A DNA stretch of 64,000 nt from a virus, in IMG/VR virus record IMGVR_UViG_3300032331_001791, positions 28,148 to 92,147 of that record, one strand, 5' to 3'. Of the stretch, positions 27,601-58,457 are shown in pieces (positions within the stretch are counted from its first letter, which is position 1; the number at the start of each line of letters is the position of its first letter). The notes beneath the pieces are model-generated. The model saw only the letters and a list, made by a program, of their open reading frames with translations, ran no database searches and was not told the DNA's origin. A program made the position numbers and the translations under genes.

Positions 27601-28270
27601 ATGCCTAGATAAAGGGTATGTAGAATTAATTACATATACTCCAGGGGGAGATTTACTTGTAGTTAATGCAGCTAGATGTTCTTTTGATAAGGAGCATAAA
27701 ATATTTAATGAAGACAAAGATTCTAAACTTATCTCTTACCTTGCACGGCATGGGCATTTATTGCCATTTAGACACCCTCACGCTACCTTTCGTATACATT
27801 GCCCCATCTTTGTATTACGCCAGCTAGGGAAGCATCAGGTTGGTTTTAGTTGGAGCGAAGTTTCTAGACGCTATATAACTTCGGAGCCTGAGTTTTACAC
27901 TCCAAAGGATTGGAGAGAGAAGGCTCCTAATGTAAAGCAAGGAAGTCTTCAACAGGTTTCTGAATACAGCACTTTTGCTACTAGTGACCATAGTGATCTA
28001 ATTAAAATGTCGTTAGGAATGTATAACGATTTATTAAATCAAGGGATCTGTGCCGAGCAAGCCCGTATGATTCTTCCTCAATCCATGTATACGACCACTG
28101 TAACAACTGGGTCATTGCTAGGCTGGCATCATCTTTGGGAGCAGAGAACGGATTCTCATGCCCAGCTAGAGACTCAGGAGTACGCACAGGCAATTGGTCA
28201 TATGATGAGTAAGCTTTATCATTATAGTTGGAAAGCACTTTGTGATGAGAAAAACGCAGATAATCGGTGA
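27590..28270 (+). CDS. thyX: Flavin-dependent thymidylate synthase
   Basis: VNAAR.S, H..PF.H, RQ..KH, SEVSRRY, EQARMILP, HAQ.E. Confidence 0.95.
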   Translation: MKVECLDKGYVELITYTPGGDLLVVNAARCSFDKEHKIFNEDKDSKLISYLARHGHLLPFRHPHATFRIHCPIFVLRQLGKHQVGFSWSEVSRRYITSEPEFYTPKDWREKAPNVKQGSLQQVSEYSTFATSDHSDLIKMSLGMYNDLLNQGICAEQARMILPQSMYTTTVTTGSLLGWHHLWEQRTDSHAQLETQEYAQAIGHMMSKLYHYSWKALCDEKNADNR

Positions 28271-33226: not shown

Positions 33227-34537
33227 ATGACATATCAGTTTAACGAGAACATTCAAAGAGCAATTATTTATTTTATGAAGTCTGATAAAGACTTCTATTT
33301 ACAGATTGTAAATCTGGTTAAGCCAGAGTACTTTGAGTTTCCTAGCCATACTAAGATTTTCAATACAGTTGTATCTTATTATGATAAATACCATGAGCTT
33401 CCTTCTGATCTTTTTATTCTTGAAGATCTAAAGAAAACTATAAACGCTAGAGAAAACATTTCTGATTACCAAGATGAGCTTGATTATGTTAATAATCTAG
33501 ATACATCATGCATCAGTAATCCAGACTATGTTGTAGATTTGATTGAGTCTTTTGCTAAAAAAGAGGCTATGAAATCTGCAATTGCAGAAAGTATTACCTT
33601 AATAAAAGAAGATAAGGTTGAAGAAGTAGAATCTATAGTTCGTAAAGCTTTGATGGTTGCACGAACAGTGGATACTGGTCAAAATTATTTTGACGATTTC
33701 TCTGATCGTTGGACAAGAACTCTTTCAAAAGATAAAGACACAAAGAAGTTTAGAACAGTATTTCCTTCCATAGATAAGTCTTTGGACGGTGGTCTTGGAT
33801 CAAAGGAGTTGGCTATGGTTGTTGCTCCTCCTGGTGTTGGTAAATCTTTGTATCTAGTTAATCAAGGTGTTCAATCTTTGATTGATGGAAATAATGTTCT
33901 TTATATCTCGCTTGAGATGAGTGAAGATAAAATCGCTCAGAGATTCGATTCTATCATGTCGCTTGTTCCTCAACAGAAGTTGAAGGATCCTAAGCATCAA
34001 CTTACTGTAAAAGAAAGACTTAATATTTTCCAAAGTACATTTAAAGGACGCTTGATCATCAAGGAATATCCTACTTTGATGGCATCCGTTAATAATATTA
34101 GAAGTCTTTTAGTGCAACTTAAAAGCTATCAAGAGTTTGTTCCGCAGGTCATCATTATTGATTATCTTGAACTCCTACGATCAACTAGAGAGATTCAACA
34201 TGAGTATCAAGCTCAACAGCGCATTGCTGAAGAACTTCGTGGACTTTCAATGGAACAAAATGTTCTAGTTTGGACGGCTACACAAACTAATCGTCAAGGT
34301 AGAACTAAAGCTATTATCACAGATGTTGAACTCGGAGACTCCTATGGTAAGATTCGTCCCTGTGATTTCTCTATGTCTCTAAATCAAACAGAAGAAGAGT
34401 TTGATAATGGTATTATGCGAGTATATATTATGAAGTCTAGAAATGGAGTTCCTCGCTTTCAAGTTCCAGCAAAAGTGGATTACTCTGTTCTTCGTATGAC
34501 TGAATCTACAGATAGATTAGAGGCTAGTAATGATTGA
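33227..34537 (+). CDS. gp41: Replicative helicase (DnaB/gp41-like)
   Basis: APPGVGKS, ISLEMSE, IIDY, TATQTNR, KSRNG. Confidence 0.95.
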   Translation: MTYQFNENIQRAIIYFMKSDKDFYLQIVNLVKPEYFEFPSHTKIFNTVVSYYDKYHELPSDLFILEDLKKTINARENISDYQDELDYVNNLDTSCISNPDYVVDLIESFAKKEAMKSAIAESITLIKEDKVEEVESIVRKALMVARTVDTGQNYFDDFSDRWTRTLSKDKDTKKFRTVFPSIDKSLDGGLGSKELAMVVAPPGVGKSLYLVNQGVQSLIDGNNVLYISLEMSEDKIAQRFDSIMSLVPQQKLKDPKHQLTVKERLNIFQSTFKGRLIIKEYPTLMASVNNIRSLLVQLKSYQEFVPQVIIIDYLELLRSTREIQHEYQAQQRIAEELRGLSMEQNVLVWTATQTNRQGRTKAIITDVELGDSYGKIRPCDFSMSLNQTEEEFDNGIMRVYIMKSRNGVPRFQVPAKVDYSVLRMTESTDRLEASND

Positions 34538-49774: not shown

Positions 49775-50245
49775 ATGATGTACTCCTGCTCTAAATGTAA
49801 AAACATATTATCTGAAGAGAACTTTTGCAATAATAAAGCAAGGCATAATGGAAAATCTGCTTATTGTAAAAACTGTGATAATGAAAGAAAAAAGACATAT
49901 TCAAAAACAGAAAAAGGAAAAATCGCCAATAAAAGAAGGCAAAGACGAGTTGATAAATCAAAAATAAAAGAATATCAAAAAATAAGCAGAAAAAAAAGAC
50001 AAGAGTTAGTTGATGAAGTAAAAAAGAAAGGTTGCTTTCTTTGTGGATATAATAAAACTTTTATCGCTTTAGATCTTCATCATTTAGAAGAAGACTTCAA
50101 GGTTGATACATTATCAAACATGATTTACTCTTCCTCACTAAAAAAAATAGAACAAGAATTAAAAAAATGCATTGTTTTATGTGCAAACTGTCATAGGGAA
50201 GTTCATCATTCTGAACACCTACGAAATTTATTAAAAATAAGTTGA
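49775..50245 (+). CDS. Free-standing HNH endonuclease
   Basis: CSKC, CKNC, CFLCGY..ALD.HH, KCIVLCANCHREVH. Confidence 0.85.
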   Translation: MMYSCSKCKNILSEENFCNNKARHNGKSAYCKNCDNERKKTYSKTEKGKIANKRRQRRVDKSKIKEYQKISRKKRQELVDEVKKKGCFLCGYNKTFIALDLHHLEEDFKVDTLSNMIYSSSLKKIEQELKKCIVLCANCHREVHHSEHLRNLLKIS

Positions 50246-54356: not shown

Positions 54357-54384
54357 TTGAGAAAAGAGGGGTATGGGCTATTAT
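54357..54384 (+). promoter_or_regulatory. Putative tRNA operon promoter
   Basis: TTGAGA-16-TATTAT, 13 nt before the first tRNA. Confidence 0.5.
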
Positions 54385-54397
54385 AAGGTGGCTCAAC

Positions 54398-54474
54398 GCG
54401 ACTGTAGCTCAGTTGGTTAGAGCAGGGTTCTTATAAAGCTCAGGTCAGAAGTTCAAGTCTTCTCAGTCGCACCA
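54398..54474 (+). tRNA. tRNA-Ile(UAU)
   Basis: Acceptor GCGACTG/CAGTCGC, loop CT-TAT-AA, GTTCAAG, ACCA. Confidence 0.9.
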
Positions 54475-54478
54475 TATT

Positions 54479-54535
54479 GGCGCGGGAGTAGCTAGATCGT
54501 AAGACTAGCTGTAATCAGAACCCAACTCCCGCGCC
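54479..54535 (+). ncRNA. Unassigned structured RNA candidate
   Basis: Perfect 11-bp GC-rich stem enclosing a GUAA-capped hairpin and a 14-nt bulge. Confidence 0.55.
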
Positions 54536-54559
54536 GTTCTTTTAAACTTAGTACACTAT

Positions 54560-54646
54560 GGCCTAGTGGCGAAATAGGCAGACGCATCAGACTTAAAATC
54601 TGAAGCCCTCACAGGCGTATCGGTTCGATTCCGATCTAGGCTACCA
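54560..54646 (+). tRNA. tRNA-Leu(UAA)
   Basis: TCAGA-CT-TAA-AA-TCTGA, long variable arm, ACCA. Confidence 0.93.
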
Positions 54647-54647
54647 T

Positions 54648-54724
54648 GGCTCCGTAGCTCAACAGGATAGAGCAACGGTTTTCTAAACCGTAGGTTAGTG
54701 GTTCGATCCCACTCGGAGCTACCA
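54648..54724 (+). tRNA. tRNA-Arg(UCU)
   Basis: ACGGT-TT-TCT-AA-ACCGT, ACCA. Confidence 0.93.
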
Positions 54725-54729
54725 ATCAC

Positions 54730-54804
54730 TCCCTGATAGCTCAATGGTAGAGCACAAAACTGTTAATTTTGGTGTTGAAGGTTCGAGTCCTTCTCGGGGA
54801 GCCA
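54730..54804 (+). tRNA. tRNA-Asn(GUU)
   Basis: CAAAA-CT-GTT-AA-TTTTG, GCCA. Confidence 0.93.
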
Positions 54805-54885
54805 TCTAAACACTCTTTGAAAACTTAAATTTAGGTAGAACTAAAAATGTTCTACCTATACTATATATTATGGAGAAATGCTTTT

Positions 54886-55239
54886 ATGGCAAAACACGAA
54901 ATAAAAAATTGTAGCAAACATGGAGATGTAAAATTTGTATTGGAAGGTCGTGGTTATTTTAGATGTACTGCGTGCAGAGTTGATGCTGTTGTCAAAAGAA
55001 GAAAAAAAATTAAATTATTGTCTGTAGAATACAAAGGTGGGAAATGTCATTTTTGTGGTTATAACAAATGTGTTGAAGCATTAGATTTTCACCATTTAGA
55101 TGCAAATAAAAAAGATTTTGGAATTGCTTACAAGGGCCACACAAAATCTTTTGATAAAATAAGATCAGAGTTAGATAAATGCGTTTTAGTATGTTCTAAC
55201 TGTCACAGAGAAATACACGCAGGGTTAATTCAATGGTAG
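54886..55239 (+). CDS. HNH endonuclease within the tRNA cluster
   Basis: CSKHG, CTAC, YKGGKC..CGYNKC.EALDFHH, KCVLVCSNCHREIH; GGAG SD. Confidence 0.88.
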   Translation: MAKHEIKNCSKHGDVKFVLEGRGYFRCTACRVDAVVKRRKKIKLLSVEYKGGKCHFCGYNKCVEALDFHHLDANKKDFGIAYKGHTKSFDKIRSELDKCVLVCSNCHREIHAGLIQW

Positions 55240-55293
55240 AATGATAGCCTTCCAAGCTATTCGTTGCGAGTTCAAATCTCGTACCCTGCTCCA
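55219..55293 (+). tRNA. tRNA-Gly(UCC)
   Basis: GCAGGGT/ACCCTGC, ATAGC-CT-TCC-AA-GCTAT, TCCA. Confidence 0.92.
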
Positions 55294-55301
55294 ATATAAA
55301 T

Positions 55302-55377
55302 GAGATCGTAGCTCAGTCGGTAGAGCATTAGACTTTTAATCTAGTGGTCGTGGGTTCGATCCCCACCGATCTCACCA
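55302..55377 (+). tRNA. tRNA-Lys(UUU)
   Basis: GAGATCG/CGATCTC, TAGA-CT-TTT-AA-TCTA, ACCA. Confidence 0.93.
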
Positions 55378-55385
55378 AATCAATT

Positions 55386-55649
55386 ATGAATATACATGAA
55401 ATTTTAAAAGAATTAGAATTAGATCTGCTGTTAGCCGATGGGTTCGATGAAGCCCTAGTCGGTTTTGCAGAGGTCAACGGAGAGACAGTAGTAGTTTATG
55501 ACTATTATAAAATCGTAGACATTCTAATAGAAAGAGATGAAATGGATCCTGAAGATGCAAAAGAATATGCAGACTTTAATGTTAAAGGCGCGTATGTAGG
55601 GCCAAAAACCCCCATCTTCATGTCACCTCTTGCCAAAAAGTCAAATTAA
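55386..55649 (+). CDS. Conserved-type phage hypothetical protein
   Basis: ADGFDEALVG..VVYD..A.EY..FNV.GAYVG..TPIF. Confidence 0.7.
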   Translation: MNIHEILKELELDLLLADGFDEALVGFAEVNGETVVVYDYYKIVDILIERDEMDPEDAKEYADFNVKGAYVGPKTPIFMSPLAKKSN

Positions 55650-56022
55650 CCCCTATTACCAAAAAGTCAAACTTATGCTAATAAAAGCTGATTTATACAA
55701 TATTACACACTCAACAGTGCAAGGAGAGCCAAGCACTATCGAGTTCAAGATATCGCATTTCCGAAACTACACCAATAAACAGATACTCAAGAATGGCGGG
55801 TATACCTGTTTGTCAATGGTGGAAGATGGAAAGCCATACTCAATTGTGTCTCGCTGTAGTGCGCGGGAAACTTACAATCGTAAGAAGGGTGTACAAGAGT
55901 GCATCCGTAAGTATCTACAAAGAACTTATGGTAGCTATGGAACAGAAATTATGTTAAGTATGGATCGTAAGAATCCTCGTCACTACATAGTTCATTTCTC
56001 AGTTTACAAAGATAATAAATAA
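55630..56022 (+). CDS. Hypothetical protein
   Basis: GGYT...CS..E.YNRK.G motif. Confidence 0.55.
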   Translation: MPKSQINPYYQKVKLMLIKADLYNITHSTVQGEPSTIEFKISHFRNYTNKQILKNGGYTCLSMVEDGKPYSIVSRCSARETYNRKKGVQECIRKYLQRTYGSYGTEIMLSMDRKNPRHYIVHFSVYKDNK

Positions 56023-56056
56023 CTTTAGTAATACTAAAATTTTTCTGAAAAAATCC

Positions 56057-56091
56057 GTGACAAAGGCTTCCTCGTAGGTTATAGTCCCTAC
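56057..56091 (+). promoter_or_regulatory. Leaderless sigma70-type promoter
   Basis: GTGACA-17-TATAGT-6-ATG. Confidence 0.65.
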
Positions 56092-56574
56092 ATGAACATT
56101 TTCGCCCTTGATCTCGACCCAAATCTTTGCGCTGCCTATCATTGCGATAGTCATGTTGTGAAGATGATTACCGAGCATATGCAAATGCTCAACTCCAATG
56201 CCAAGTTCCTATCCAAAGTTAGTGGTAAGATAGCTTGGTTGAACCATCCCTGCACCATCTGGCTCCGCGAGTCTAGAGAAAACTTGGATTGGCTTAACAA
56301 GGTACAGATTGAACTTAACTTTGAATGGCAAAAAAGGTGGAATCACCCTTCCAATCTTAACCATCGGGGTTATGATCTCTGGCGTACCCTGTATGATAGT
56401 AAGAACCTCAGGAATCTCTTCCCTGATGTTCCCATGACTCGCTTCGCACAAGCGATGCCTGACGAATGCAAGCGCGATAATCCTATTGATGGATATCGCA
56501 CTTACTACAACACTCACAAGAAAACTTTCGCTAAGTGGAAAACTCAAACTCCTTTCTGGTATAATCCTGTATGA
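56092..56574 (+). CDS. Pyrimidine dimer DNA glycosylase (DenV-related) family protein
   Basis: MNIF.LD..P..A..HCD.HVVKM..E..QML; NHPCTIW; QAMPD; YR.YY...K...W. Confidence 0.8.
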   Translation: MNIFALDLDPNLCAAYHCDSHVVKMITEHMQMLNSNAKFLSKVSGKIAWLNHPCTIWLRESRENLDWLNKVQIELNFEWQKRWNHPSNLNHRGYDLWRTLYDSKNLRNLFPDVPMTRFAQAMPDECKRDNPIDGYRTYYNTHKKTFAKWKTQTPFWYNPV

Positions 56575-57617
56575 GTAAGATTCAAGATAACAAAATTGGT
56601 CTTTGTTACGATGATGTATTGATTGTTCCAAGGTATTCTGATGTATTGACTAGATCAGCCGTAATTTTAGCTCCTAACTTTAAGCCTTTTACTAGTTTAG
56701 ATTCTCACTTTAAGCCTTTTACTGGCCTAAAGATTCCAATCATTTCTGCAAACATGGATACCATTACTGGTATCAAGATGGCAAAAAAGATGCAGGAGCT
56801 TGGAGGCTTTGGAATCATTCATCGTAATGAATCTATTCAAAACATTGATAAGGCTTTTAAAAACATCGAACCAAAAAATGTTTTTGTGGCAGTCGGTAGT
56901 TATCTTAATAACAAACAACGAATTGATGATGTTATGTCTAGAGGATATAACATTTGTGTAGATATTGCTCACGGGGATAGTTATCATATGAAAAAAACCC
57001 TTGAGTATATCCGAAGCAAAGATAGTAATATCTTTATTATTGCTGGAAATGTCGCCACTCCAGATGCGTGTATCGCACTTAACTATTGGGGAGCAAACTT
57101 GGTTAAGGTTGGAGTAGGTGGAGGAAGTGCTTGCACAACCAGAATCAAGACTGGTTGCGGGGTTCCTCAACTTACAGCAGTTCTTGATTGTGCCCAAGCT
57201 GGTATTCCTTTCATTGCTGATGGAGGCATTCGTAACTCAGGGGACGCTGCCAAGGCTCTTGCAGCGGGAGCAAATTTCATTATGATTGGGGGTATGCTTG
57301 CAGGAACTGACTGCACTCCTAATTGGAATTACGAAGATGCCCTGCTTGGTAAAGATATGGAATTTAGAGGAATGGCATCTTTCAAAGCAAAGGAGGCAAC
57401 TGGCCTTGCGATGCGTCACGAAGAGGGAATCTCAACCAAGGTTAAAGCGCGTTTTGAAGGTAGTACAGAAGAAGTTATCCAAGGACTCGTAGATGGAATT
57501 AAGTCCGCTATGAGTTATGCTGGATGCTTTACTTTGCAAGAATTTAGTTATCGAGCCACTTTCATGCAAGTTTCATCTAACACTTATAAGGAGAACCATG
57601 CACACTTCCAACAATGA
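56571..57617 (+). CDS. IMP dehydrogenase/GMP reductase family protein (no CBS domains)
   Basis: [48 protein letters not shown]. Confidence 0.92.
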
Positions 57618-57858
57618 TGATATGATTAACCATCCGAAGCATTACACCTTCGGTAAATTTGAAGTAATTGATGTAATCGAGGATGCAAAGCTCGACTACC
57701 ATCTTGGGAATGTAATTAAGTACATCCTGCGTGCAAGACATAAAGGGAAGTATCTTGAGGATCTCAAGAAGGCTAGATTCTATCTAAATCGTAAGATTGA
57801 GCTTATTGAGAAAGAACAGGAAGACATTCCCGACTTCGAAAATCCTCCCTACAAATGA
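57598..57858 (+). CDS. DUF3310-family protein
   Basis: INHPKHY..EVID..GNVIKY..R...K...EDLKKA.FY. Confidence 0.85.
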   Translation: MHTSNNDDMINHPKHYTFGKFEVIDVIEDAKLDYHLGNVIKYILRARHKGKYLEDLKKARFYLNRKIELIEKEQEDIPDFENPPYK

Positions 57859-58457
57859 AATCAGAACTAACAAGCGATCAATGGGATAAGATTGAGAATA
57901 AATATGGCAAACTTATCCACACTATCTGCCAGATGATTTCTGGAGATCAGGCTCTTTGTTCTCACGAAGACTTGTATTCTGATCTTTGTATTGCGGCTAT
58001 CGAAGCTGTGATTGGCTTTCAAAAGAAATACAACAAGCCTTTTGATGAAATCATTGATGATCCTATCTTCAATAAATACATTAAGACTTGTCTTTGGAAT
58101 TACAAGAACAACCGTGGAACAAAGCTAACCAAGAAGATGCACATTAGAAAGTGTATCCCTTTGGTTTGGGATGAAGACAAAGATGGAAAGCACTTTGATT
58201 CCCAAGCTGCTGATTTTATGGTATCAAAGGAAGATCCTTCGTTTGGTGTAGAACTTGAGTTTACTAATAAGTTTATTGAGTCCACACTTGACAAGGAGCA
58301 ATTGAACCTGATCGAGTACATAGTTGACAATCCAGATCTTTTGAAAAAGAATGGTAAAGTTAATCGGGCTGCTCTTTCTGACAAACTATCTAAGAACTGG
58401 GCGCACATTGATTCCCAACTTAACTCAATTTCAAAGCTGGTAGGTATTGAACTATGA
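57855..58457 (+). CDS. Sigma70-like factor (putative)
   Basis: KY..LI..I...EDL......IEA...F....F.KY...LWN resembles region 2; C-terminal HTH-like segment. Confidence 0.55.
   Translation: MKSELTSDQWDKIENKYGKLIHTICQMISGDQALCSHEDLYSDLCIAAIEAVIGFQKKYNKPFDEIIDDPIFNKYIKTCLWNYKNNRGTKLTKKMHIRKCIPLVWDEDKDGKHFDSQAADFMVSKEDPSFGVELEFTNKFIESTLDKEQLNLIEYIVDNPDLLKKNGKVNRAALSDKLSKNWAHIDSQLNSISKLVGIEL

Follow-up and report, generated by a model that had tools for sequence, protein, structure and literature searches.

A phage HNH endonuclease gene ending inside tRNA-Gly, and its co-transfer with that tRNA

The window analysed here is a stretch of 64,000 nucleotides from a 92-kb phage contig of 35% G+C (IMG/VR record IMGVR_UViG_3300032331_001791, positions 28,148 to 92,147). 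ARAGORN identified six tRNA genes in one same-strand array, which are all the tRNAs of the 92-kb genome and score 60-76 bits against Rfam RF00005, and an ORF of the HNH endonuclease type lies between tRNA-Asn(GUU) and tRNA-Gly(UCC) (Table 1). According to the ORF list the frame is open on the plus strand from 54847 or 54886 to 55239. The likely start is the ATG at 54886, behind the GGAG of the spacer, since this ATG is kept in the related contig L132 whereas the upstream one is not. A terminator at the hairpin of the same spacer was considered and rejected, the plus strand having no T-run there. Another, G+C-rich hairpin (gcgcgggagt...actcccgcgc) was seen at 54479-54535 in the gap between tRNA-Ile and tRNA-Leu, where neither ARAGORN nor Rfam calls a gene; this gap is not conserved in L132 (49% identity, 14 gaps), in contrast to the adjacent tRNAs.

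Table 1. Features of the tRNA array and of the paralogous ORF (window coordinates), with DNA identity to the corresponding part of contig L132
Feature	Position	Strand	Evidence and remarks	Identity to L132
Paralogous HNH ORF	49775..50245	+	156 aa; own stop; PHROG 2255 E = 5.4e-26	
Promoter-like site	54357-54384		5' of tRNA-Ile(UAU); sequence scan	
tRNA-Ile(UAU)	54398..54474	+	ARAGORN, Rfam 67.5 bits; first gene of the array	77%
tRNA-Leu(UAA)	54560..54646	+	ARAGORN, Rfam	67%
tRNA-Arg(UCU)	54648..54724	+	ARAGORN, Rfam	82%
tRNA-Asn(GUU)	54730..54804	+	ARAGORN, Rfam; typical upstream neighbour of the PHROG 2255 HNH family	92%
Recently transferred tract	54730..55298	+	tRNA-Asn, spacer, HNH, tRNA-Gly and four of the five bases that follow it, to 55298; L132 is from a distantly related phage	91-100%
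Spacer	54805..54885	+	10-bp hairpin 54832-54858, then GGAG 54872-54875	91%
HNH endonuclease ORF (predicted)	54886..55239	+	117 aa; TAG stop 55237-55239	97.3%
Dual-coding 21 nt	55219..55239	+	Codons AGLIQW and TAG, tRNA-Gly positions 1-21	100%
tRNA-Gly(UCC)	55219..55293	+	ARAGORN, Rfam 67.5 bits; A10:U25, U73, encoded CCA	100%
tRNA-Lys(UUU)	55302..55377	+	ARAGORN, Rfam; last gene of the array	missing

The ORF terminates as CSNCHREIH-AGLIQW-TAG. Its last His codon, CAC, occupies 55216-55218 and the very next base is position +1 of tRNA-Gly, so that the two genes share 21 nt, namely six codons and the stop, which cover the acceptor 5' strand, U8, A9, D-stem and D-loop of the tRNA. The ORF has no stop of its own, and the TAG used sits in the D-loop. 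A sequence-only reading of this DNA had already placed the end of the ORF 21 nt inside tRNA-Gly(UCC), and the sequence, the ORF list and ARAGORN bear out its coordinates exactly. The tRNA itself looks functional, judging from a score on par with those of the adjacent tRNAs, the U73 discriminator and the encoded CCA. RNase P cleaves at tRNA position +1 in 5' maturation. The stop codon lies 3' of this processing site on the same transcript, and owing to the overlap no terminator is possible between the site and the stop; the earlier proposal that a cut at 55219 would leave a stop-less ORF ending after His111 is therefore geometrically correct. Also as proposed, the paralog beginning at 49775, whose terminus reads CANCHREVHHSEHLRNLLKIS, has no nearby tRNA, the six tRNAs of the genome all lying at 54398-55377.

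The product of the ORF matches PHROG 2255 'HNH endonuclease' over residues 3-116 (E = 2.8e-29), and the profile of this family matches the HNH domain of McrA (6ghc, E = 1.7e-4); Pfam PF01844 (HNH) alone remained under its cut-off (14.4 vs 21.4 bits), and the HNH protein had zero matches in an NCBIfam search. C54, C57, H69, H70, C103, C106 and H107 are invariant in an alignment of 41 sequences, at least 90% of which also have N105 and H111. Every invariant Cys and His is present in the window protein, which possesses the catalytic His, Asn and His together with two zinc Cys pairs. The AlphaFold model (pLDDT 93.6) predicts an N-terminal three-stranded zinc ribbon, a long helix, the HNH strands (66-70 and 99-103) and the metal-site helix 104-111, followed by residues 112-117 as an ordered coil. 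The best Foldseek matches in the PDB were weak, none reaching E <= 0.001, and were all HNH proteins (Cap5, Gme, McrA, Cas9 HNH and T4 endonuclease VII). Taken from sequence profile and structure model, the ORF is a predicted member of the HNH (beta-beta-alpha-Me) endonuclease superfamily with an N-terminal zinc ribbon and a beta-beta-alpha-Me core. We infer its nuclease activity and homing, as well as RNase P cleavage of its message and the effect of such cleavage on protein level.

A tblastn search of phage genomes gave 498 matching records. Four annotated phages from unrelated groups were inspected (the crAss-like Bacteroides phage DAC15, Cronobacter phage CR3, a Yersinia jumbo phage and an Acinetobacter phage), and in all four the HNH gene lies within a same-strand tRNA array. 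Among at least 547 confirmed relatives in IMG/VR, 80 loci were surveyed (L numbers denote loci of this and of the other searches), and dereplication at 90% protein identity gave 78 copies; 65 of the 78 are in arrays with at least two same-strand tRNAs. tRNA-Asn(GUU) directly adjoins 38 of 67 family copies, compared with a share of 8.6% among the tRNAs of the same loci. The PHROG 2255 family is thus nearly confined to phage tRNA arrays, where it usually sits beside tRNA-Asn(GUU). Four loci have a tRNA-Asn on both sides of the HNH gene, the paired copies being about 55-60% alike, and in three of these four (L029, L043 and L049) one tRNA-Asn copy has a long variable arm and measures 87-90 nt; odd, type-II-like 'spare' tRNAs are often carried by nuclease cassettes (the same three loci, and the tRNA-Thr of L119). 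Several arrays (L038, L047, L065, L022, L019 and L048) hold two or three divergent family copies within 6 kb, each by different tRNAs. Furthermore, seven loci (L026, L030, L035, L036, L048, L066 and L077), on Lak-like and other very large phage contigs, have one to four in-frame standard stops inside the conserved HNH match, which fits stop-codon recoding.

An overlap unique to this genome would have spoken against the sequence-only reading, but the overlap recurs widely across the family: among the 65 dereplicated copies with a downstream same-strand tRNA, the stop lies inside that tRNA in 22, by 1-39 nt, and 0-10 nt ahead of it in 9 more, with the ORF ends of eight surveyed copies from recoded phages being uncertain. 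The overlapped tRNAs belong to nine species (Asn 11, Gly 3, Ile 2, and one each of Ser, Lys, Pro, Trp, Cys and Thr). The modal overlap of 10 nt corresponds to a TAG formed by U8-A9-G10, which is carried by 290 of the 658 distinct tRNAs of the surveyed loci; having no stop of their own, overlapping family ORFs are read on until the first stop triplet that the tRNA offers in frame. The distance from the last His codon to the tRNA start is 0-2 nt in five lineages. The junction of His with tRNA-Gly +1 is found again in L055-57 (IH-AGVA-stop), and a junction of His with tRNA-Asn in L075 reads GNVTQLVE-stop, resembling native tails.

What the tRNA contributes to the protein can be judged from members that end clear of a tRNA, with tails such as HAGLIKLDEIGRII in DAC15, HAGLIELNQ in CR3 and HDGLIEA in Aci05. 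In 65 copies the tail has four or more residues that no tRNA encodes; their modal residues are A, G, L and I, and 18 of these 65 tails fit AG[LIVM][ILVT]. The third codon positions of native AGLI tails are variable, so the conservation is at the protein rather than the DNA level. The same variation led us to reject descent of the family tail from a tRNA-Gly fragment. Conversely, tRNA-Gly read from +1 commonly gives AG[LIV][VAI], because its acceptor stem, GCNGGN.UA..., often spells Ala-Gly-Leu/Ile/Val. AG[LIVM][ILVTA] is read from +1 in 10 of 29 tRNA-Gly genes vs 19 of 658 tRNAs of every kind, indicating that tRNA-Gly is almost the sole tRNA able to substitute for the tail codon by codon. Since AGLI is native also without a tRNA, and tRNA-Gly often reads AG[LIV]x, the 21 nt are dual-coding rather than an accidental read-through. 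The earlier statement that the tRNA encodes the HNH C-terminus hence stands for the coding, but AGLIQW is no foreign extension, AGLI being the commonest native tail of the family. The window tRNA-Gly also has the minority pair A10:U25, A10 occurring in 83 of 658 tRNAs in the surveyed loci. A10 makes the fourth tail codon Ile, in line with the consensus, whereas this codon would be Val or Ala with most tRNA-Gly; as a single sequence case, it hints at mutual adjustment of tRNA-Gly and the HNH tail.

Other genes of the same arrays behave differently. The comparison used crude, uncurated ORF calls from the same loci and covered ORFs of at least 70 aa whose ends lie close to a tRNA on the same strand. 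Where such an ORF directly precedes a tRNA, overlap is seen in 23 of 53 family HNH (43%) vs 5 of 95 others (5%; Fisher p = 3e-8), and with ORFs between two tRNAs only, the numbers are 20 of 46 vs 3 of 59 (Fisher p = 2e-6). Moreover, the five overlapping 'other' ORFs include at least one HNH, and probably two, from a different family. Stops 0-10 nt ahead of the tRNA are found in 38 of the 95 other ORFs (about 40-46% across both sets), which shows that tight packing is general in these arrays and that crossing the boundary is the nuclease trait. This excess could also mean that overlap has been selected in the nucleases.

The gene order Ile-Leu-Arg-Asn-HNH-Gly is common to three metagenome contigs, L132-134, whose flanking proteins are 35-55% identical to those of the window. 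Similarity to L132 fades gradually upstream (Table 1) and stops sharply at 55298, 5 nt past tRNA-Gly, beyond which identity is 44%, the random level. Between the two HNH genes there are nine differences, six in third positions and three non-synonymous, and the dual-coding 55219..55239 and the whole tRNA-Gly are 100% identical in L132-L134. This identity pattern is that of a recent gene-conversion tract with its right end at the end of tRNA-Gly. Such high identity of HNH and tRNA-Gly vs their flanks, together with the abrupt end, shows that the pair moved recently as a unit. Past tRNA-Gly the window continues with tRNA-Lys, an 87-aa protein and more genes and L132 with other ORFs; window 55299-57860 and L132:4702-5250 are wholly different, and the proteins become similar again from about 57867. 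A variable region adjoins the tRNA array.

A distant family member provides a comparison of occupied and empty arrays. The HNH-less array of L103 reads Tyr-Asn-(5 nt)-Thr-Glu; in L119 the same Tyr and Asn precede an HNH that runs 39 nt into a different tRNA-Thr, and a near-identical Glu follows, so that HNH and its own tRNA-Thr replaced the resident tRNA-Thr. Together with the identity gradient against L132, this agrees with the claim of the sequence-only reading that the overlap ties the nuclease gene to the tRNA, HNH and tRNA-Gly being inherited together. The tRNA-Thr(UGU) of L119 (L119:3816-3897) is 82 nt with a long variable arm, and the very different resident of L103 is 73 nt. Elsewhere in L103, a 1.1-kb gap between tRNA-Met and tRNA-Tyr (L103:6750-7865) holds a methyltransferase-like ORF (+) overlapping an HNH-like ORF (..CPNCHWEYDH..) (-), in a position occupied by tRNA-Lys in L109 and L119.

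For the window array itself, an HNH-less version was found neither in L132-134 nor in IMG/VR through searches with tRNA-Gly and with the 174-aa and 87-aa proteins: an exact search with the 3' half of tRNA-Gly gave no match, the upstream 174-aa protein had no IMG/VR relatives, and relatives of the downstream 87-aa protein came from 46 loci, none syntenic with the window array, although the L119/L103 pair was among them. Insertion at this site is thus deduced from the relatives. Missing HNH coverage in run X5 was rejected as evidence of an HNH-less strain. A close relative is present in river metatranscriptome libraries, where one assembled contig spans 55085-55298, showing neither transcription nor RNA ends.

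The locus as a whole is probably best explained as a homing-type HNH gene fused to a co-travelling tRNA-Gly, with the cassette moved by gene conversion. A free-standing nuclease gene of this type would have become joined to the tRNA gene with which it travels, the first 18 bases of tRNA-Gly doubling as codons for the commonest C-terminal tail of the family (AGLI..), and the two genes would pass between phage genomes as one cassette, as has been shown for SegB of T4. Every full-length HNH mRNA must at the same time be a tRNA-Gly precursor. RNase P cleavage at 55218/55219 would leave a message without stop codon and without the six tail codons, and complete enzyme would come from unprocessed transcripts only. 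Under this explanation the overlap would be a by-effect of compacting the cassette that probably lowers expression and is tolerated, and not a conserved control device.

The same geometry could instead reflect selected self-limitation, the stop being kept in the tRNA so that RNase P would yield a non-stop mRNA and a tmRNA-tagged, degraded product, so that a potentially toxic nuclease would stay very scarce. Such throttling by RNase P and tmRNA tagging is plausible in that it would fit the geometry, which is exact, and it agrees with the start of the tRNA 0-2 nt after the last His codon in five lineages, with an overlap frequency that fits a cost ordinary genes avoid and nucleases tolerate or exploit, and with a published proposal (PMC2330249). 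On the other hand, the state changes easily in evolution: at one Asn..Trp site L015 shows a 3-nt gap and its close relative L053 a 10-nt overlap, and such toggling between close relatives argues against a conserved regulatory device. In a poorly resolved protein tree from an incomplete search, used only for this point and for the L015/L053 sister pair, overlapping copies are dispersed and show no more clustering than after shuffling; the number of independent origins is therefore judged from how varied the partner tRNAs and junctions are. A separate stop is present in two thirds of the copies that have a tRNA downstream, the window paralog does without such a device, and ArfA- or ArfB-mediated ribosome rescue would set free protein that lacks the tag. 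We therefore consider selected self-limitation somewhat unlikely. Less likely still seems a broader version, in which the overlap would be a selected self-limiting device shared by unrelated array homing nucleases, whose genes would favour a stop inside a tRNA where ordinary array genes avoid one, the A10:U25 pair of tRNA-Gly would have co-evolved with the AGLI tail, and only translation before RNase P would give complete enzyme, that occurring later giving a tail-less and tagged one.

It is also conceivable, though doubtful, that the HNH is a domesticated enzyme of array maintenance or anti-defence, nicking or cutting array DNA and so promoting recombination and amplification of tRNA genes, with the overlap reflecting tight operon packing. 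Under Septu defence the T4 tRNA locus undergoes segmental amplification promoted by SegB (PMC13096335), the kinds of difference between window and L132 suggest purifying selection on the HNH, and the family is kept in very diverse phages; however, presence and absence differ between otherwise similar arrays (L119 vs L103), many genomes have several copies (L038, L047 and L065), and an HNH tract identity far above that of the flanks is a mobile-element signature. Domesticated and selfish roles are not mutually exclusive. Homing endonuclease genes often decay, and the minority A10:U25 pair in the D-stem might be taken as a sign that one of the two genes, tRNA-Gly or HNH, is a defunct relic whose overlap is biologically meaningless, but this is very improbable: the tRNA scores like its neighbours, has U73 and CCA and is fully conserved in L132-134, and the ORF is intact with all invariant Cys and His, and is 97% identical in L132 with mostly third-position changes. 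The fused, co-travelling cassette remains our preferred reading.

Phage tRNA arrays matter against host defences that destroy tRNAs, and homing nucleases like SegB reshape these arrays; a widespread HNH family moving with a tRNA gene is one plausible route of tRNA-gene exchange between phages. The 21-nt dual-coding junction is in addition a compact test case for processing-limited nuclease expression. A mechanistic parallel is found in mitochondrial tRNA punctuation, where tRNA 5' processing makes mRNA 3' ends and coding regions abut or overlap tRNAs and may lack a complete stop codon, which is then completed by polyadenylation. No stop-codon repair of this polyadenylation kind is known in bacteria or phages. 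The likeness between mitochondria and the window locus is in mechanism, not ancestry; non-stop mitochondrial products are discussed in PMC9674279.

Overlap of a nuclease gene with its tRNA array is in itself not new, having precedents in T4 and T5 and being common in the PHROG 2255 family. T4 SegB is a GIY-YIG free-standing homing endonuclease of the T4 tRNA gene cluster (PMC2330249, PMC13096335), which cuts inside tRNA genes, preferring a site in tRNA-Asn, and causes adjoining tRNA genes to be co-inherited (PMC2330249). The throttling idea is not new either: Brok-Volchanskaya et al. proposed that maturation of tRNA-Arg severs the stop codon of the segB mRNA from the sense codons before it, lowering expression (PMC2330249), and the same down-regulation is mentioned there for the T5 nucleases F-TflI, II and IV (Akulenko 2004, as cited in PMC2330249). 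The contrast between nucleases and other array genes gives indirect support to this 2008 proposal, with the overlap possibly being a neutral by-product of packing. Like the window HNH gene, segB lies between same-strand tRNA genes and is transcribed within a tRNA precursor. Unlike it, SegB has the GIY-YIG instead of the HNH fold, its stop is 5 nt before tRNA-Arg rather than inside in the current T4 annotation, and the tRNA encodes no piece of a conserved tail.

In the RefSeq record of T5, hegC, hegD and T5.069 end 14, 23 and 24 nt inside tRNA-Ser2, tRNA-Gln2 and tRNA-Asn, respectively, with tRNA-Gln2 flagged as a pseudogene. T5.069 (L135; record 34006-34524, annotated as hypothetical) has a GIY-YIG-like motif, and the tRNA-Asn(GUU) that it enters (33952-34029) is of the species preferred by SegB and adjoining the PHROG 2255 HNH family. 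These T5 genes resemble the window gene as nuclease ORFs of a tRNA array, hegC and hegD being HNH as well and of the F-Tfl series, that end inside tRNAs. The differences are that hegC and hegD belong to another HNH subfamily with extra DNA-binding domains, and that the tRNA-encoded residues of the T5 nucleases form no conserved tail; a tblastn search of T5 with the window HNH protein found hegA only (E = 0.01). Compared with these systems, three features are distinctive here: a conserved tail of the protein is re-encoded by the 5' end of tRNA-Gly, the family is strongly tied to tRNA-Asn, and its contrast with the non-nuclease genes of the same arrays is put into numbers.
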